NCBI GenBank assembly: GCA_964392835.1
Contig: CAYMRI010000001.1
Location: forward strand, 1 to 33,747
Length of the DNA stretch: 33,747 nucleotides
Reading direction: 5' to 3'
DNA from: an uncultured Eubacteriales bacterium
GTDB taxonomy: Bacteria > Bacillota > Clostridia > UBA1212 > CASDQQ01
Below are positions 2,256 through 9,809 of the stretch, one piece after another (position 1 is the first letter of the stretch; every line of letters starts with the position of its first letter). Below the pieces are notes generated by a model that did no database searches, had not been told where the DNA came from, and saw nothing but the letters and a program-made list of their open reading frames with translations. The position numbers and the translations under genes were made by a program.

Positions 2256-3649
2256 TTTTCAACAACCTCCTTGATTTCAAATGAATCCCGTACACATTGT
2301 CGGGCTGTCTCTACGCTATTCCAAATTTTTTGTTGTAACATTTGTGCCATTAGATTTCCTGTAGCGGTGGCTTCCGCCGGACCTGCCAGCACTTTCTTGC
2401 CTGTGGCTTTGGCAGTTAGGCGGTTTAAATAATCTGCATTACAGCCGCCCCCTACCACATAAATGGCTGGATAGTTGATGCCTGTCAAATCTTCAATTTC
2501 CTTTACGGTCTGGGCATAGCTTTCTGCCAGACTTTTGTAAATCACCACTGCCAATTCTCCTACGGTTTGGGGAATGGGCTGGTTGGTATTTCGGCAATAG
2601 GCCTTCACCGCCTCTATCATACTATCCGGCGCCAGAAAACTTTGGTCATTCACATCCACTCGAGATGAAAAACCATCTGCTTCCTCTGCCAGTTGGCAAA
2701 GCTGTGCAAAACTGTAAGCGTCGTTCAGCTCATGCCGCACGGACTGAATCATCCAAAGTCCCATAATATTTTTCAAAAAACGAAATCTGCCTTCGTATCC
2801 GCCTTCATTGGTAAAATTGGCTTGTCTGCTTTTCTCGCTGCAATTCGGTTCCCATTGTTCCGTGCCCATTAAAGACCAGGTACCGGAGCTGATATAGAGG
2901 AAGTTTTCTTCTTTTGCAGGAACCGCTAATACAGCCGACCCAGTATCGTGGGTTGCCGGTAATACCACTTGGCAATCAAAGCCTATTTCTTCCTGCACTT
3001 CTTTGGAAAAATTTCCAATGAGAGTGCCTGGCTGTTGTAGGGATTGGAACAGGTGGGTTGGCAAGTTTAGGGCTTCGATGAGTTGGAAATCCCATTGCTT
3101 GGTTTGGGCATCCACCAATTGGGTGGTTGTGCCGTTGGTATATTCTTGTACCTTTTTCCCAGTCAGGCAAAAATGCAGATAATCGGGAATCATCAGCAAA
3201 GACTTTGCCTGTTCCAGGCGTTTATCCTCTGCCATCAATTGAAAAATGGTATTAAAGGGCTGCTTTTGAATGCCCGTTTTTGCATACAGGGCTTCCGGAC
3301 TTATGGTTGCATACACTTTTTTGTCCATTTTTTGGGTGCGGTGGTCGCGATAGCCATATACAGGCGCTATGGGCTTGTCGTTGCCATCTAACAGCACATA
3401 GTCCACCGCCCAGGTATCGATTCCCATGGTAACAGGGATTTTGTTCATGGCTTTGCAGGTCTTAAGGCCCTGCTTAATTTGGGAAAGCAAATGCGCTATA
3501 TCCCAGCATAAATGCCCTTTTTGGTTACGAATCATGCCGTTTTCGAAGCGGTATACTTCTTCTAAAACCAGCTTGCCGTTTTCCAGTGTGCCCAAGATAT
3601 GCCGTCCGCTGGAAGCGCCAATATCCACTGCCAGATAATAAGGGTTCAT
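2252..3649 (-). CDS. rhaB: Rhamnulokinase (FGGY carbohydrate kinase family), 465 aa
   Basis: The FGGY N-terminus YLAVDIGASSGRHILG is present, the size is right, and the gene sits directly upstream of and overlapping rhaA. RBS AAGGAGAA lies before the ATG at 3649. Confidence 0.88.
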   Translation of the reverse strand: MNPYYLAVDIGASSGRHILGTLENGKLVLEEVYRFENGMIRNQKGHLCWDIAHLLSQIKQGLKTCKAMNKIPVTMGIDTWAVDYVLLDGNDKPIAPVYGYRDHRTQKMDKKVYATISPEALYAKTGIQKQPFNTIFQLMAEDKRLEQAKSLLMIPDYLHFCLTGKKVQEYTNGTTTQLVDAQTKQWDFQLIEALNLPTHLFQSLQQPGTLIGNFSKEVQEEIGFDCQVVLPATHDTGSAVLAVPAKEENFLYISSGTWSLMGTEQWEPNCSEKSRQANFTNEGGYEGRFRFLKNIMGLWMIQSVRHELNDAYSFAQLCQLAEEADGFSSRVDVNDQSFLAPDSMIEAVKAYCRNTNQPIPQTVGELAVVIYKSLAESYAQTVKEIEDLTGINYPAIYVVGGGCNADYLNRLTAKATGKKVLAGPAEATATGNLMAQMLQQKIWNSVETARQCVRDSFEIKEVVEK

Positions 3650-3754
3650 ATGTAATTCTCCTTGCGTGTTATTATCACTATTTTACAATAAAATGTGTGG
3701 GTTGTATAGGACTTTTATTAGCCGAATTAGAAAAATGATGTCTTCCGGACACAT

Positions 3755-3768
3755 TGAAAACGTTTAAA
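3755..3768. promoter_or_regulatory. Candidate catabolite-responsive element (cre, CcpA site) upstream of rhaBAD
   Basis: TGAAAACGTTTAAA compared with the remembered cre consensus TGWAANCGNTNWCA has one mismatch (A instead of C at the penultimate position). It lies about 105 nt upstream of the rhaB start. Confidence 0.3.
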
Positions 3769-3817
3769 AAATGAATAAAAAGCAAAAATGCGGAAACATT
3801 AAAATTGTAATATGAGG

Positions 3818-3846
3818 TTGACAGTTTTCGTCAATTAGCATATTAT
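3818..3846 (+). promoter_or_regulatory. SigmaA-type promoter driving the antitoxin repeats and toxin gene
   Basis: TTGACA (3818-3823), a 17-nt spacer, then TATTAT (3841-3846, overlapping TATAAT at 3844-3849). The repeats begin about 10 nt downstream. Confidence 0.7.
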
Positions 3847-3857
3847 AATGATACAGA

Positions 3858-3963
3858 AAGGTCTCCATTAGCCTTATAGTTTTGAACTATAAAAGAGATG
3901 AGCATTAAAGAAGGTCTCCATTAACCTTCGGTAATCAGTCCGTAAAGAGATGAACATTAACGA
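3858..3963 (+). ncRNA. Type III antitoxin RNA (ToxI/CptI-like): two tandem 53-nt units
   Basis: Unit 1 (3858-3910) is AAGGTCTCCATTAGCCTT-ATAGTTTTGAACTATA-AAAGAGATGAGCATTAAAG. Unit 2 (3911-3963) is AAGGTCTCCATTAACCTT-CGGTAATCAGTCCGT-AAAGAGATGAACATTAACGA. The units sit between a promoter and an intrinsic terminator, immediately 5' of a ToxN/AbiQ-like ORF. That is the canonical type III TA layout. Confidence 0.65.
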
Positions 3964-3993
3964 ATGGGAAGCTTAGTCTTCCCATATTTTTTT
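3964..3993 (+). terminator. Intrinsic terminator between the antitoxin repeats and the toxin gene
   Basis: Stem ATGGGAAG (3964-3971) pairs with CTTCCCAT (3978-3985) around a 6-nt loop, followed by A and T7 (3987-3993). In ToxIN-type loci an equivalent terminator limits read-through into the toxin gene. Confidence 0.75.
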
Positions 3994-4010
3994 ACAAAAA
4001 GGAGTACAGC

Positions 4011-4574
4011 ATGTTTACACTGGATGGAAACTTGACTTTTATCAATATTGACCAAATTTATCTCAAAAAATTACACGATGTATGTTCTGAAGTGTATTAT
4101 AAAGAGTGCGGATACGAAAACAAGCCATATATTGGAATTCTAATAAACAAAAACGATAAGAAATATGTTATTCCATTATCTTCTGCGAAGGAAAAGCATA
4201 AAGCTTGGAAAAATATTGAAAACGACTGTTATTTAATATATGAAACAGCGGCTAAATCCTGTATGGGGACAGATGATATTTGGGTAAGCATTGATGCAAC
4301 AAATGTAAAGCATATCCTGGCTGTTATGGATGTCAAAAAAATGATTCCCATTATAGATGGCGTTTATAGCAGAGTAAATATTAATCCAGAACCGGCAGAT
4401 ACAGAAACATTGCGTAAATATAAAGATTTACTAAATAAAGAATACATATTCTGTTTGAAAATCATTGATGATGTAATTGCCAAAGCAAATAAAATATATG
4501 ACAAACAAAAGAAAACCGGAAAAGTATCTAGGTTTTGTTGTGACTTTAAGGCTTTAGAGTCTGTTACATATTAA
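4011..4574 (+). CDS. Type III TA toxin, ToxN/AbiQ-family endoribonuclease (abortive-infection type), 187 aa
   Basis: By eye, several blocks resemble ToxN/AbiQ: KPYIGILINKNDKKYVIPLSSAKEKH (compare RPY[IV]GIV...Y.APL[ST]SPK.KH), a central KKMIPI block, and a C-terminal LLNKEYIFCLKIIDDVIAKANKIY...CDFKALE block. RBS GGAG is 6 nt before the ATG. The gene is preceded by tandem repeats plus a terminator and is much more AT-rich than its flanks. Confidence 0.85.
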   Translation: MFTLDGNLTFINIDQIYLKKLHDVCSEVYYKECGYENKPYIGILINKNDKKYVIPLSSAKEKHKAWKNIENDCYLIYETAAKSCMGTDDIWVSIDATNVKHILAVMDVKKMIPIIDGVYSRVNINPEPADTETLRKYKDLLNKEYIFCLKIIDDVIAKANKIYDKQKKTGKVSRFCCDFKALESVTY

Positions 4575-4590
4575 GTCAGATTTTTCAGTA

Positions 4591-4619
4591 TTGACAACCC
4601 ACCCCGCATACAATAGAAT
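4591..4619 (+). promoter_or_regulatory. SigmaA-type promoter for the GNAT leader transcript
   Basis: TTGACA (4591-4596), a 17-nt spacer, then TAGAAT (4614-4619). It lies about 230 nt upstream of the GNAT start codon. Confidence 0.6.
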
Positions 4620-4647
4620 GTAGAAAAATTTTTGAGAGGTATTGAGA

Positions 4648-4758
4648 ATGCAAAGCTATTTGATCCAATCTTATTCCATGGTCAATATGCGTGCCGACGC
4701 TGTCATGTATTGGCAGAATGGCAGGCTTGCATTGTCGTACCCTTATCAGCGGAATTAG
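4648..4758 (+). CDS. Possible 36-codon leader ORF (uORF) inside the GNAT leader
   Basis: GAGAGG is 8 nt before the ATG at 4648. The translation is MQSYLIQSYSMVNMRADAVMYWQNGRLALSYPYQRN, ending at TAG 4756-4758. It covers the candidate antiterminator segment (4721-4731). No homology is recognised, so coding status is unproven. Confidence 0.25.
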   Translation: MQSYLIQSYSMVNMRADAVMYWQNGRLALSYPYQRN

Positions 4759-4785
4759 ATTTTTAATCAGAGATAAGAGAAATGC

Positions 4786-4822
4786 AGTGCAGGCTAGAGG
4801 AAAATGGCTTGCGCTGTTTTTT
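4786..4822 (+). terminator. Leader terminator (attenuator) 30 nt upstream of the GNAT start codon
   Basis: AGTGCAGGC (4786-4794) pairs with GCTTGCGCT (4807-4815): 9 bp including 2 G-U pairs, with a 12-nt loop, then G and T6 (4817-4822). There is no room for a promoter between it and the ATG at 4852, so GNAT expression requires read-through. Confidence 0.55.
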
Positions 4823-4851
4823 ATATTTATTTTTAAAAAAGGAGGATAACG

Positions 4852-5418
4852 ATGATGACACACAAAGGCACACAAACCATTACAACGAGGCGGCTGACCC
4901 TACGAAGATTTCAGCCGGAGGACGCCCAAGACATGTTTGAAAATTGGGCAAATGACGAAAGAGTCACCCGTTTTTTAACCTGGACACCCCATGGTTCGCC
5001 GGAATTGACAAAGCAACTGCTATCCATTTGGTGCGCCGCCTACGAAAATCCCAACAACTACAACTGGGTAATTGAAAAGGACGGCAAAGCTATCGGCAGC
5101 ATTAGCATGGTTCGCATGGATGAAGAAAGCGAAAATGCCGAACTGGGCTATTGCCTAGGGCACGCCTACTGGAATCAAGGCATTATGGCAGAGGCAGCAA
5201 AGGCAGTCATTGACTATTTATTCCGTGAAGTGGGATTTCATCGTATTGAGATTGGTCATGCAGTGAAAAATCCTGCCTCCGGTCGGGTTGCGCAAAGGTG
5301 TGGATTGACCTACGAGGGCACCAAGCGAGAATTCTACAAATGCGCCAGCGGCGAGTTTTGGGATATTGCGGAGTATGGGATTTTAAGGAGGGAGTGGGAG
5401 GAACTAACTCTCTCCTAA
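4852..5418 (+). CDS. GNAT-family N-acetyltransferase (RimJ/RimL/YdaF-like), 188 aa
   Basis: TTRRLTLRRFQPEDAQDMFENWANDERVTRFL... and a later ...GFHRIEIGHAVKNPASGRVAQRCGLTYEG block are typical of RimJ/RimL-type GNATs. RBS AAGGAGG precedes the start. Confidence 0.88.
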   Translation: MMTHKGTQTITTRRLTLRRFQPEDAQDMFENWANDERVTRFLTWTPHGSPELTKQLLSIWCAAYENPNNYNWVIEKDGKAIGSISMVRMDEESENAELGYCLGHAYWNQGIMAEAAKAVIDYLFREVGFHRIEIGHAVKNPASGRVAQRCGLTYEGTKREFYKCASGEFWDIAEYGILRREWEELTLS

Positions 5419-7808: not shown

Positions 7809-8099
7809 CTAATCATTTCTTGCCGCATTAATTTCTTCGTTAATTTCTTCTAATGTCATATCAGAAATGCCGTTCTTCTGTGCCGTTGCACTCATCTCCT
7901 GCATTGCTTTTACTGCTTCTTCCGCCTTATATTCAGGCTTGGGAAGATGCATACTAAAAGGAATTCCATTTTCCAGCACAGAGCGTTTCAAAAACATTCT
8001 TACTGCGGTGGGAAGATCAATCCCCAACTGTTCATATATCATTGTGGCTTCCGCCTTTAAATCATCATCTATTCTAATTTGTACTAATGAAGTTGCCAT
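7809..8099 (-). CDS. RelB/DinJ-family antitoxin-like ribbon-helix-helix protein with no adjacent toxin gene, 96 aa
   Basis: LVQIRIDDDLKAEATMIYEQLGIDLPTAVRMFLKRSVLENGIPF is a typical DinJ/RelB N-terminal domain. It is about 40% identical by eye to the dinJ at 17301. The start at 8099 follows AAGGAGG. Confidence 0.8.
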   Translation of the reverse strand: MATSLVQIRIDDDLKAEATMIYEQLGIDLPTAVRMFLKRSVLENGIPFSMHLPKPEYKAEEAVKAMQEMSATAQKNGISDMTLEEINEEINAARND

Positions 8100-8115
8100 A
8101 ATAACGCCTCCTTTC

Positions 8116-8146
8116 ATTGCATTTTTGTATTTGTTTGTAATGCAAT
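8116..8146. promoter_or_regulatory. Candidate operator: ATTGCATT-N15-AATGCAAT inverted repeat
   Basis: A perfect 8-bp inverted repeat (8116-8123 with 8139-8146) lies between the minus-strand TATAAT (plus-strand 8145-8150) and the RBS of the dinJ-like gene. It is inside the 135-bp divergent intergenic region shared with the 8235 operon. Confidence 0.45.
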
Positions 8147-8216: not shown

Positions 8217-8234
8217 AAAAACGAGGTGATTTCT

Positions 8235-9809
8235 ATGAGAAAAATTGGGGTTTGGGCAACATGTGGTTTCTTAGCACTATGCTTAATTACTGCTTTTCTG
8301 TTTAGCACAGGAGAGGTAGCACCCACCATAACGCCAAAAATTCCAGCTCCATCGCCCACCCCCATTGTTCTTGAGCCTGGTTTGGACTTTGGAGAAACCT
8401 ATTTTTCCGAACCACTTGTATATAAAGATTTGGATATTTTTCCCAACATAAAAACGGATACCTGCCAAAATGCAACCTGTGTAGTTTATGGAAGCGGTGA
8501 AGTTTGCTATATCTCAGAACCCTATTCCAAATATGAAAAAAGTCAGGATGGGCAAAAAGCAGCGTTACTGACAACATCCGGAAAACTATGGTTTATTGAT
8601 GCTCATGGAACACAGGTGCTGTCCTGGGATGTTTCTGATTTTTCCCTTGCCGGTAACGGAAGCTATTTATATTATATTAGTAACAGTAAGTTGTATGGCT
8701 ATGACCCCGAAACAACCAATATAGAACTGCTTTACGTCTCTGCGGCAACCATAAGTTTCATGGTGTCCTCCCCTGCCGGCGGTTACTGCGCATTTTCTGA
8801 GTCAACCACCCAAATTCGCGTTTGGAAAAGAAAAAGCGGCACCTCCTTTATCATTGCTTTAGAGACAAAGATAACCTCCGTGGCCGCCATTTCAGAAGAT
8901 GGGCAGTGGATTTATGGTTATTCTCCGGAAATTGGCTTTGTGCGGGTGAATACGGCAAATAATACCATAACACAGCTGTCTGCCACCGGCGACATGATTC
9001 GCAAATTGTATTTTAACAAAGATGCCACCGAGCTGTATTACGAATACGAAGATACGTTGTATTTTTGCAACAGACAAAAAATGCCTATAAAACTTTTAGA
9101 CTTGGATTCATCTTCGTGGAACCCTTTGTTAGAGCAGCAAGACGATGTATATACCAGAGAATATCTCTATGTCGACAATATGTTTTTCTATAACGGAACT
9201 TTTTCTGAGGACGTCTTAGTTTATGGTAGGAATAATTTATATCAATTGAAACGGGACGACGATAACATATCCTTGGAATCCCACTGTGAAAACGTTGTTT
9301 GGCACAATGATTTTTCTGTAATTTACAAAAAGGAAAATACGTTTTGGCATTGTCACATCTATAGCGACCTACCACACCATAATACCATATCTGCAGAAGC
9401 CGCAGCGCAAGGGAGTACAATTGTGAATTATGCCAACTGGTATCCTTACGCCAACGGAATTATCTTTTATATGGATAACAAAATGGTGCTGCATGGGTGT
9501 GACTCCTCGACAAAAGGAGATTTGTTTGCTCTCAATTTTGCTGATGTGACCGACTATGTAATTTCAAAAAATGGCGACAGTCTCTATTTTTTAACAACAA
9601 ATGGTGTCTTACATGGCTATGCTGTGGGAAGGGGAACGCAAATCCAATTGGGGAACTTCCCGTCAATCTCGGATTTCCCCGATGTTTCTCTTTTAGCAGA
9701 AGACGGTGGCGTTTATCTCCGGGATGACAGAGAATCAGAGACCAAAATTTACCGCCTCAGCTTGGAAGCACCTTATATCACATATTTAGGAGAGGAAATT
9801 TATGGGTAA
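8235..9809 (+). CDS. Uncharacterised single-pass membrane protein with an extracytoplasmic beta-propeller-like (TolB/DUF5050-like) domain, paralog 1, 524 aa
   Basis: The N-terminus has one hydrophobic helix (WATCGFLALCLITAFLF) followed by a Pro/Thr linker. Repeated blade-like motifs follow (GNGSYLYYISNSKLYGYD, ISEDGQWIYGYSP, FNKDATELYY, ISKNGDSLYFLT). The ATG at 8235 lies 8 nt after GAGG; the track start at 8226 is a GTG inside the RBS. Confidence 0.75.
   Translation: MRKIGVWATCGFLALCLITAFLFSTGEVAPTITPKIPAPSPTPIVLEPGLDFGETYFSEPLVYKDLDIFPNIKTDTCQNATCVVYGSGEVCYISEPYSKYEKSQDGQKAALLTTSGKLWFIDAHGTQVLSWDVSDFSLAGNGSYLYYISNSKLYGYDPETTNIELLYVSAATISFMVSSPAGGYCAFSESTTQIRVWKRKSGTSFIIALETKITSVAAISEDGQWIYGYSPEIGFVRVNTANNTITQLSATGDMIRKLYFNKDATELYYEYEDTLYFCNRQKMPIKLLDLDSSSWNPLLEQQDDVYTREYLYVDNMFFYNGTFSEDVLVYGRNNLYQLKRDDDNISLESHCENVVWHNDFSVIYKKENTFWHCHIYSDLPHHNTISAEAAAQGSTIVNYANWYPYANGIIFYMDNKMVLHGCDSSTKGDLFALNFADVTDYVISKNGDSLYFLTTNGVLHGYAVGRGTQIQLGNFPSISDFPDVSLLAEDGGVYLRDDRESETKIYRLSLEAPYITYLGEEIYG

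Follow-up and report, generated by a model that had tools for sequence, protein, structure and literature searches.

A probable intact type III toxin-antitoxin cassette of the toxIN family in a gut Clostridia-type genome

Introduction

Type III toxin-antitoxin systems have a defining layout in which a promoter, a set of repeats, a terminator and a toxin gene stand in that order (PMC5086642). Published repeats span 31 to 62 nt in toxIN (mean, 38.1 nt), 40 to 48 nt in cptIN and 39 to 57 nt in tenpIN (mean, 50.9 nt) (PMC3401426). Characterised toxIN systems come from Pectobacterium atrosepticum (plasmid pECA1039), Bacillus thuringiensis and Escherichia coli (2XD0/2XDD, 4ATO and 7D8O), and the active site of ToxN comprises K33, T52, S53 and K55 (PMC8860590). 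A Firmicute Abi toxin of the ToxN family is found in AbiQ/antiQ of Lactococcus lactis plasmid pSRQ900 (4GLK). Its antitoxin, antiQ, is made of short repeats of about 35 nt. CptIN of Eubacterium rectale (4RMO) also belongs to type III, comes from a host similar to ours (gut Clostridia) and has few, longer repeats (40 to 48 nt).

Here, we analyse a 33,747-nt stretch of DNA from an uncultured Eubacteriales bacterium, which as a whole we call the window. A preliminary description had read positions 3818 to 4574 as a type III toxin-antitoxin module. We find that this segment is very probably an intact toxIN-family cassette, whose RNA processing, toxicity, neutralisation and defence activity we infer from its family. 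In this genome, of a gut Clostridia type, the window can now be annotated with confidence as carrying a self-contained type III toxin-antitoxin cassette, likely of the abortive-infection kind. With standard annotation, the toxin alone would be marked and the antitoxin RNA left out.

Results and discussion

The cassette and its setting

On the + strand, positions 3818 to 4574 hold a promoter, two RNA units, a terminator and a 187-amino acid open reading frame (ORF), in that order, which is the layout of the ToxIN systems of P. atrosepticum, B. thuringiensis and E. coli. All four parts named in the preliminary description were found, at coordinates that were exact or off by a few bases. Its claim of a type III module is borne out by ToxN_toxin and AbiQ matches, by the predicted fold of the toxin and by a part order that is kept in relatives. 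The cassette appears complete and undamaged, and is ordinary as a type; toxicity, RNA processing and phage defence would be those expected of its family.

The predicted promoter is of the sigma-70 type (3818 to 3846, + strand), with a −35 TTGACA (3818 to 3823), a 17-nt spacer and a −10 TATTAT (3841 to 3846). It scored 11 of 12 in a consensus scan, as its description as near-consensus implied, and transcription would start at about 3853 to 3856. Note that the AT-rich stretch contains six promoter-like matches against 6.3 expected, so a single match is not above chance. We compared 80 related genome loci, 79 of them with upstream DNA, and a −35/−10 pair whose −10 ends 8 to 11 nt 5′ of the first unit recurs in 67 of these 79. 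We predict the promoter from its sequence together with this conserved position.

Between antitoxin and toxin lies an intrinsic terminator (3964 to 3993, + strand; AUGGGAAG-loop-CUUCCCAU and then a U run). In the terminator scan, an 8-bp stem at 3964 to 3985 with four G-C pairs encloses a loop of 6 nt, and a run of T extends to 3993, at the place first proposed for it. A stem and T run also follow the last unit in the related loci read, so the position is kept, while the stem sequences differ (for example, GGGAAG/CUUCCC, AGGCUGC/GCAGCCU and GACCGCC/GGCGGUC). By direct reading of the sequence, a ribosome-binding site, AAGGAG (3999 to 4004, + strand), lies 6 nt 5′ of the toxN ATG.

The cassette sits in an AT-rich islet, as had been noted, with a GC content of 0.30 to 0.33 across 3601 to 4650 versus 0.42 to 0.50 on either side. 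Related cassettes hold their own GC content (0.343 ± 0.026) regardless of that of their flanks. Horizontal acquisition, which the preliminary description suggested, is consistent with this low GC content and with the lack of flanks in common between the window and the 80 related loci (tblastn and blastn), which do not share its RhaB and GNAT neighbours; neither an empty site nor a scar of insertion came to light. In the search for an empty site, exact-match look-up with GNAT returned a single 1-kb contig only, and look-up with RhaB returned no match. Sister contigs that carry the same toxin also share its downstream genes, and end within the repeat. Neither flanking direct repeats nor tRNA genes were found at the cassette. 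Insertion of the cassette is therefore not demonstrated.

A toxin of the ToxN/AbiQ family

The toxin gene, toxN (4011 to 4574 including the stop codon, + strand), encodes 187 amino acids, compared with 185 to 205 in relatives. Its assignment to the ToxN/AbiQ endoribonucleases agrees with profile searches: Pfam ToxN_toxin (PF13958) matches residues 8 to 185 with E = 2.5e-40 (138.7 bits versus a cut-off of 25), and AbiQ is the best PADLOC model (8.8e-25). There was no family match in NCBIfam. Sequence matches in the Protein Data Bank (PDB) were to ToxN/AbiQ chains only (ToxN_Bt 4ATO, AbiQ 4GLK, ToxN_Ec 7D8O and ToxN_Pa 2XD0). An AF2 model of the toxin (pLDDT 91.2) retrieved the same four structures at the top of a Foldseek search (2XD0, 7D8O, 4ATO and 4GLK; E from 1e-8 to 1e-7; TM, 0.62 to 0.75; TMt, 0.70 to 0.75), and the toxin is accordingly modelled with a ToxN fold.

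Residues K38, S57, S58 and K60 align to the catalytic K33, T52, S53 and K55 of ToxN_Ec, with T52 replaced by Ser. These four are invariant in 24 homologues, and the window toxin retains every column that is invariant among them. It thus shares Pfam family, predicted fold and Lys/Thr(Ser)/Ser/Lys positions with the ToxN proteins of P. atrosepticum, B. thuringiensis and E. coli, although the nearest characterised toxins are only 22 to 26% identical to it. The window toxin also has an extra segment at about residues 66 to 100. AbiQ, at about 26% identity, is on par with ToxN in sequence and fold similarity.

The Pfam and PDB matches, the AlphaFold fold shared with ToxN and AbiQ and the kept active site place the cassette in the toxIN family, not in cptIN or tenpIN. 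Of the preliminary label "ToxIN/CptIN-like," the first half thus stands and the second does not. The PDB sequence search returned no CptN match at E ≤ 10, and the Foldseek match to CptN of E. rectale (4RMO) was weak (E = 0.027; TM, 0.43 to 0.51; 14% identity). TenpN chains were absent both from the PDB sequence matches and from the 50 best Foldseek matches. The longer repeat could still be taken to indicate cptIN, tenpIN or a fourth type III family, given that the 52- to 53-nt unit is closer to the tenpIN mean than to the toxIN mean and that cptIN is common in this kind of host (PMC3401426). Since sequence profile and predicted fold both group the toxin with ToxN and AbiQ, and toxIN repeats extend to 62 nt, we regard this as extremely unlikely. 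The earlier statement that described repeats are about 34 to 45 nt was mistaken, as those of toxIN and tenpIN reach 62 and 57 nt (PMC3401426). A 53-nt, two-copy array lies inside the described ranges, so the length of its repeats is not enough to mark it as the variant or new subfamily that had been suggested.

Two predicted antitoxin RNA units

The two tandem repeats first seen upstream of the toxin are confirmed by covariance model as imperfect units of 53 and 52 nt. Unit 1 (3858 to 3910, + strand) scores 64.8 bits with model R1 (E = 3e-15). Its first hairpin, P1, pairs 3859 to 3862 with 3871 to 3874 (AGGU/GCCU, one G-U), and its second, P2, pairs 3874 to 3881 with 3885 to 3892 (8 bp; also found as an inverted repeat, I4); the minimum free energy fold contains both. 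Unit 2 (3911 to 3962, + strand) scores 75.6 bits (E = 5e-18), with P1 at 3912 to 3915 and 3924 to 3927 (AGGU/ACCU) and P2 at 3929 to 3931 and 3940 to 3942 (CGG/CCG) around an 8-nt loop. The units end in the conserved tails AAAGAGAUGAGCAUUAAAG and AAAGAGAUGAACAUUAACG, respectively. R1 has no further match on either strand of the 33.7-kb window. A variant of unit 2 with one P2-loop base changed is the commonest at that position (19 of 128 units in related loci).

The units are identical at 36 of 54 aligned columns (67%), with conserved ends (18 nt at 94% and 21 nt at 90%) and a divergent middle. This low identity is why Tandem Repeats Finder reported no array in 3600 to 4900; the repeats are not absent. 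Rfam 15 (cmscan, 3600 to 4900, E ≤ 10) gave chance-level matches only, none of them over 3858 to 3962, and a literature search with the unit sequence returned just an unrelated primer. The antitoxin RNA of this gut-bacterial branch thus appears in neither Rfam nor the literature searched.

Divergence of this degree might be read as decay, and decayed modules do exist among relatives: one locus (L035:4013-4064) retains a unit and terminator, with the toxin gene absent. We consider it highly unlikely that the window holds such a non-functional remnant. Its ORF is full length and keeps all invariant columns, active-site positions included; there is no damage to promoter, terminator or ribosome-binding site; and neither unit scores worse than those at other loci. 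Moreover, what sets unit 1 apart from unit 2 is also conserved from species to species.

A unit of about 50 nt lies between promoter and terminator, upstream of toxN, in all 79 related loci with upstream DNA. Across about 480 kb of related loci, every strong covariance-model match was 5′ of toxN and on the toxin strand, bar the decayed module. Copy number varies, with one unit in 34 of the 80 loci, two in 45 and four in one. Loci L050 and L060, from the isolate genome of Treponema zioleckii kT3, are among those with one unit. The clade is large: 199 loci were found among the species-representative genomes scanned, and it also counts 528 protein clusters.

RNAalifold predicts P1 and P2 independently, and both hairpins are supported by frequent compensatory changes in the aligned sequences. 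For pair 19-34 the counts are 46 CG, 25 AU, 7 UA and 1 GU, and it is broken nowhere; for pair 20-33 they are 53 GC and 26 UA; and pair 2-17 is AU, GU or UA. The G-U pairs are consistent with a + strand transcript. A pseudoknot of the kind typical of ToxI could be formed by a single candidate pairing, CUC/GAG (columns 6 to 8 with 39 to 41), though this is speculation: the pairing is 98% paired and invariant, so it offers no covariation. It is absent by inspection from the Clostridium perfringens relative, and transfer onto the Enterococcus faecalis and C. perfringens units gives inconsistent registers. Such a pseudoknot, present in characterised ToxIN, is thus not demonstrable in the window units. 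The window RNA shares an A-rich unit junction with characterised ToxIN. It differs in unit length (52 to 53 versus 34 to 36 nt), in an extra, freely varying P2 hairpin and in having two non-identical units where the characterised systems have near-perfect repeats.

Plasmid relatives and phage contigs

The nearest annotated relatives of the toxin are on plasmids pGTC3 of E. faecalis (45.6% identity) and p5 of C. perfringens (37.7%). RefSeq and GenBank records already call relatives "ToxN/AbiQ family toxin," and each of these plasmid toxins, so annotated, is preceded by a related repeat array. The pGTC3 and p5 arrays share with the window the P1 module (AGGU-8 nt-ACCU) and a GAAC(A/G)UUAAA tail. 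The pGTC3 array consists of three units of about 42 nt without P2; in that of p5, two units have the P2 hairpin and a third, short unit lacks it. From this presence and absence, P2 looks insertable and removable, and appears to have become fixed in the clade of the window.

Single full-length units were also observed as orphans on uncultured phage contigs, far from any toxN (L175:10835-10884 and L180:8384-8434 are examples), and several are near tRNA genes. Scanning viral sequences again with the 3′ block brought no further orphan unit among the matches listed. Phage PhiTE carries a pseudo-ToxI, a sequence resembling the host antitoxin that can act as an antitoxin mimic (PMC3475682). Like it, the orphan units are phage-borne and antitoxin-like, with the toxin gene absent; they differ from it in being single, full-length units, in their uncultured phage contigs and in the tRNA genes near several of them.

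These comparisons bear on whether the RNA upstream of toxN is an antitoxin at all. It might be a cis-acting leader for toxN, such as an attenuator or protein-binding operator, in which the two-unit repeat is incidental. The single unit in 34 of the 80 loci indicates that repetition is not required, and the unit always adjoins the terminator. Yet the distant plasmid relatives have classical three-copy arrays of a related unit (AGGU-loop-ACCU ... GAACAUUAAAG), and one related locus has four copies. The distance of the phage orphans from toxN points to action in trans, and the invariant single-stranded 3′ tail of the unit matches the ToxI tails that sit in the grooves of ToxN (PMC5086642). We therefore judge a cis-acting leader very unlikely, and the antitoxin reading is the one followed below.

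Proposed mechanism and biological role

We propose that the promoter at 3818 to 3846, of a constitutive type, would drive a single transcript that starts a few bases 5′ of the two ToxI-like units. The terminator at 3964 to 3993 would stop most transcripts, keeping antitoxin RNA in excess of toxin mRNA, with ToxN translated from read-through. ToxN, a predicted sequence-specific endoribonuclease using the equivalents K38, S57, S58 and K60, would split the precursor within the A-rich junction UUAAAG/AAGG to give units of about 52 nt, which on the family pattern would carry a 2′,3′-cyclic phosphate, and would remain on their single-stranded tails in a closed, inactive RNA-protein ring. Should the antitoxin supply fail, for example when a phage infection shuts off transcription, the labile RNA would decay, and free ToxN would cleave cellular and phage RNAs, arresting the cell and aborting the infection. 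The processing site, the assembly and stoichiometry of the ring, toxicity, neutralisation, trigger and defence outcome are all drawn by analogy from the family.

Taken jointly, the data lead us to suggest, tentatively and as something short of probable, that the window represents a large undescribed toxIN clade whose RNA of about 50 nt and two hairpins is far more conserved than its toxin and works singly, and that the phage orphans are antitoxin decoys. If so, close to half of these systems would escape any survey built on tandem repeats, given the 34 single-copy loci among 80. Through the consensus sequence, the two supported helices and the covariance model, the antitoxin RNA of a common gut-bacterial toxIN clade is now defined in a form that can be put to use. 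If the observations on single-unit loci and phage orphans hold up experimentally, the working definition of type III antitoxins as tandem repeats would need widening, and natural RNA decoys could be added to the arms race between gut phages and their hosts.

A working type III pair may also serve selfish self-maintenance or stress-linked growth arrest, and not phage defence. The cassette stands alone among housekeeping genes in the window, as do most of its counterparts at the 80 related loci, and a GC content of its own whatever the flank fits a mobile, self-interested element. Against this, the characterised ToxIN_Pa and AbiQ abort phage infection (PMC3401426, PMC5086642), one relative adjoins a Shedu gene, and phage contigs with orphan units are hard to explain unless phages meet the toxin. 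We consider the purely selfish or stress-linked role unlikely, though much less so than the alternatives above; note that such a role and phage defence are not mutually exclusive.

With phage defence kept as the preferred role, genomic context adds little to it and was not used as evidence, because the neighbours are mostly housekeeping genes. Those in the window encode sugar catabolism, a GNAT acetyltransferase, a flippase and SodA, with no defence island. The 141 nearest neighbour ORFs of the related loci (PADLOC and Pfam) are likewise mostly housekeeping, with rpsI at eight loci and EF-Tu and DAHP synthase at three each. The few defence neighbours include Vsr (three), AbiH (two) and PDC-S02 (two).

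A complete toxIN cassette in an AT-rich islet

[quoted passage not shown] A promoter, repeats, a terminator and a 187-aa open reading frame (ORF) had been proposed in this order from the sequence alone, and we find all four on the plus strand. The promoter, TTGACA-17-TATTAT (3818–3846, +), matches at 11 of 12 positions in a promoter scan; promoter-like sites as such are not above chance in the AT-rich stretch (6 found versus 6.3 expected in the same scan). It is followed by two antitoxin RNA units (3858–3910 and 3911–3962, both +; 64.8 and 75.6 bits with a covariance model) and by a terminator-like hairpin (3964–3985, +; terminator scan) with a T run after it. AAGGAG (3999–4004, +; read directly in the sequence of 3500–5000) and the toxN ORF of 187 aa (4011–4574, +; six-frame ORF list), with its ATG at 4011 and its stop ending at 4574, complete the cassette. 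The claimed AT-rich islet was likewise recovered, with a GC content of 0.30–0.33 over 3601–4650 versus 0.42–0.50 on both flanks.

The identity of these parts is read directly; for processing, assembly, toxicity, trigger and phage defence, we infer the most likely mechanism by homology with characterized ToxIN systems (PMC5086642, PMC8860590). Transcription from 3818–3846 would give a two-unit RNA, and the terminator would restrict read-through into toxN. By analogy, ToxN would cleave the precursor in the A-rich junction and stay on the unit tails in an inactive ring, and loss of the labile RNA would free the nuclease.

The toxin belongs to the ToxN/AbiQ family

A profile search, which the preliminary description had proposed, returned significant matches of the 187-aa protein to Pfam ToxN_toxin (PF13958; E = 2.5e-40, residues 8–185) and to the PADLOC AbiQ model (8.8e-25). 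With its parts in order and this match, the complete type III module claimed in that description is real and was correctly interpreted. The sole real sequence matches among solved structures were ToxN of Bacillus thuringiensis (4ATO), AbiQ (4GLK), ToxN of Escherichia coli (7D8O) and ToxN of Pectobacterium atrosepticum (2XD0). The same four ranked first in a Foldseek search with an AlphaFold2 model of the toxin (24 homologues, mean pLDDT 91.2), at E values of 1e-8 to 1e-7, TM scores of 0.62–0.75 and 22–26% identity. In an alignment to the E. coli toxin, K38, S57, S58 and K60 fall at the places of K33, T52, S53 and K55, which form the catalytic site of that toxin (PMC8860590); these four residues, plus G42 and P55, are invariant across the 24 homologues. 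Matches in sequence, predicted fold and predicted active site thus assign the toxin to the ToxN/AbiQ family.

The toxin had been described as ToxIN/CptIN-like, and only the first half of that label holds. CptN (4RMO) came next in the Foldseek ranking, after the ToxN and AbiQ structures, at E = 0.027 and TM 0.43–0.51, and we reject this identity; MazF-type toxins ranked lower still. We also reject TenpN, since both sequence and predicted fold place the toxin with ToxN/AbiQ.

A large protein collection holds 528 relatives of the toxin at E ≤ 1e-5; all 120 of the relatives listed carry PF13958, and a few are called 'type III toxin-antitoxin system ToxN/AbiQ family toxin' or AbiQ in their source records. 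With each prokaryotic species represented by a single genome, a further scan gave 199 loci encoding a relative, of which the best 80 were fetched and compared. Among these 80, loci with toxins at 62–77% identity are mostly from Lachnospiraceae, and those at 52–61% mostly from Treponema and from rumen or gut bacteria that are unclassified. Desulfovibrionaceae, Alphaproteobacteria and an actinobacterium have one assigned locus each; binning errors are possible in metagenome-assembled genomes.

An undescribed antitoxin RNA conserved across the clade

Upstream DNA is present for 79 of the 80 related loci, and in every one of these, as in the window, the antitoxin unit lies directly upstream of toxN. 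Its consensus runs from AAGGUCUCCAUUAACCUU through a variable hairpin to AAAGAGAUGAAC(A/U)UUAA(A/C)G, and its core is near-invariant while the toxins diverge to 52% identity. The comparison of homologous loci that had been called for found the unit to be conserved (79/79) and its copy number to vary: two copies in 45 sources (the window and 44 related loci), a single copy in 34 loci and four copies in another. Every strong covariance-model match in ~480 kb of related loci is upstream of toxN on the toxin strand, except in one locus, L035. In 67 of 79 loci, a −35/−10 pair ends 8–11 nt upstream of unit 1, which should place the primary 5′ end no more than a few bases from where the unit begins. 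The loci read have a terminator after their last unit, with stems that differ between groups and always pair, and the motif UUAA(A/C)GA is retained between units and after the last one.

A single, unrepeated unit sits between promoter and terminator in 34 of the 80 related loci (e.g., L050:2904–2952 and L055:2904–2952; group L007, L009, L011, L020, L037, L046 and L048–L080), and two of these single-unit loci come from Treponema zioleckii kT3, an isolate genome. In L035, an intact toxIN is followed after ~450 nt by another unit (4013–4100), which is degenerate and has its terminator and ribosome-binding site and no toxin gene: its ATG is directly followed by TAA, and the module has decayed. In eight loci of a mouse-gut Lachnospiraceae group (L033–L047), ribosomal protein S9 is the nearest upstream neighbor and the TTGACA-17-TATTAT promoter is absent; the cassette there may be read from another promoter or from rpsI read-through. 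Two Logan contigs (L085 and L086), with a toxin of the same 90%-identity cluster and downstream genes as in the window, have only 44 and 108 nt in front of toxN, their ends falling within or beside the repeat. Short-read assemblies evidently tend to break there, and in metagenome data loci of this kind will often be without their antitoxin.

The two units of the window share 36 of 54 aligned columns (67%), which falls under the detection level of Tandem Repeats Finder and explains why that program reported no array at the site. A repeat finder recovered two conserved blocks, 3858–3875/3911–3928 (18 nt, 94% identity, spacing 53) and 3892–3912/3944–3964 (21 nt, 90% identity, spacing 52). The middles of the copies differ in sequence, and in length by one base; that of copy 1 is a perfect 8-bp hairpin (3874–3881 with 3885–3892). 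Across both strands of the whole window, the covariance model found nothing comparable elsewhere (next match 11.7 bits, E = 0.3).

A 53-nt, two-copy repeat had been proposed as a variant or a new subfamily, with described repeats put at about 34–45 nt. That range is wrong: published toxIN repeats measure 31–62 nt (mean 38.1) in 1.9–5.6 copies, which includes the present case, and those of cptIN and tenpIN measure 40–48 nt and 39–57 nt (mean 50.9), respectively (PMC3401426, Table 2, a 2012 survey). ToxI sequences alignable to the pseudoknot template were 31–46 nt; three of ~60 nt and nine others were not alignable, and one had a 12-nt hairpin insertion (PMC3401426). According to a 2025 paper, most of the antitoxins reported for toxIN and cptIN consist of perfect repeats (PMC12283969); the two repeats here are non-identical. 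Type III loci have been defined by a tandem array from Tandem Repeats Finder (PMC3401426; 2016 review PMC5086642), a criterion that cannot find single-unit loci. The unit has no match in Rfam, and its sequence is absent from the searchable literature.

Two helices and an inserted hairpin

Unguided RNAalifold on a MAFFT alignment of 79 distinct units gave two helices, P1 and P2. In P1 (columns 2–5 with 14–17), pair 2–17 is AU in 67 units, GU in 7 and UA in 3, and pair 3–16 is GC in 78 and AU in 1. In P2, pair 19–34 is CG in 46, AU in 25, UA in 7 and GU in 1, with none broken; pair 20–33 is GC in 53 and UA in 26; and pair 21–32 is GC in 68 and AU in 9. No shuffle or slid control came near these values, and the G-U pairs fit plus-strand transcription of the unit. 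In the minimum-energy fold of 3853–3995, unit 1 forms both helices, unit 2 forms P1, and the terminator is also present. A candidate pseudoknot would join CUC of the P1 loop to GAG of the 3′ tail; this pairing is 98% paired and never varies, and by inspection, it is not kept in a Clostridium perfringens relative.

More distant arrays illustrate the evolution of the unit. Enterococcus faecalis plasmid pGTC3, whose toxin (45.6% identical) is annotated as a ToxN/AbiQ family toxin, has three ~42-nt units with the P1 module and a GAACAUUAAAG tail, without P2. In C. perfringens plasmid p5 (toxin 37.7% identical), the P2 hairpin is present in two units and absent from the short middle unit. Seen against these arrays, the 52–53-nt unit of the window is of the ToxI type and carries an inserted hairpin. 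Across species, units 1 and 2 of the two-unit loci in Lachnospiraceae each retain their own P2 type, and single-unit loci of this family have the unit-2 type or a hybrid of units 1 and 2, which is what recombination between copies would be expected to give.

Orphan units on phage contigs

We scanned IMG/VR for exact words and filtered the matches with the covariance model, which left at least six viral contigs with full-length units. Scores of 50–62 bits were obtained on five: L175:10835–10884 (+), L142:981–1033 (−), L151:2278–2328 (+), L180:8384–8434 (+) and L149:7936–7984 (−). The sixth contig has two weaker matches of 38–39 bits (L122:1002–1287, −), in one of which the P2 loop holds a large insertion. 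GGGU/ACCC provides a further P1 pairing in the orphan units. They sit in ORF-poor stretches, three of them sharing the fetched stretch with tRNA genes ~0.3–0.9 kb away, and no ToxN-family ORF was found in the limited flanks fetched. Clear phage genes, including endolysin, dCMP deaminase and PHROG families, occur on L175 and L180, and only two IMG/VR contigs encode a toxin relative. Phage PhiTE carries an antitoxin mimic, pseudo-ToxI (PMC3475682), which the orphan units resemble as far as their limited flanks go; by this analogy, they may be antitoxin decoys. The antitoxin RNA of this toxIN clade is undescribed, often unrepeated and present as orphan copies in phages, which lends the cassette modest added interest.

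Neighborhood and mobility

The window has neither RhaB nor flanking DNA in common with any of the 80 related loci, and none of them has a close homologue of its GNAT acetyltransferase; one has a 32%-identical GNAT fragment. Cassette GC is 0.343 ± 0.026 irrespective of flank GC (0.31–0.53; r = 0.16), and the nearest neighbors are mostly housekeeping genes, along with a few defence genes. This fits a small, self-contained cassette that moves horizontally. For the horizontal acquisition suggested at the window locus, the cassette's own GC and unshared flanks speak in favor; no empty site, target duplication or tRNA was found there, so insertion is plausible, not more.

A complete toxIN of the clade also occurs on L083, an unverified GenBank record (MT837915.1) with the label 'Bacteriophage sp.'. 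Upstream of it are a Shedu SduA-like gene, an isochorismatase gene and a SnoaL-like gene. None of six ORFs scanned against Pfam is a phage gene, and the sequence resembles a piece of bacterial DNA carrying defence genes more than it does a phage.

Elsewhere in the window, a 102-aa ORF (7809–8117, −) encodes a RelB/DinJ-type antitoxin (Pfam RelB, E = 9.5e-13) without an obvious toxin gene next to it; the neighboring ORF on the minus strand overlaps sodA on the other strand. At E ≤ 0.01, Pfam gave no match for a 527-aa ORF (8226–9809, +) that has an N-terminal hydrophobic segment. The interval from toxN to the GNAT gene contains a promoter-like site, TTGACA-17-TAGAAT (4591–4619), a 36-codon ORF without a Pfam match (4648–4758) and a strong terminator-like hairpin (4784–4817) with the GNAT ribosome-binding site directly 3′ of it. 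These intergenic features (4591–4851) match no Rfam family and look like a leader or attenuator for the GNAT acetyltransferase.
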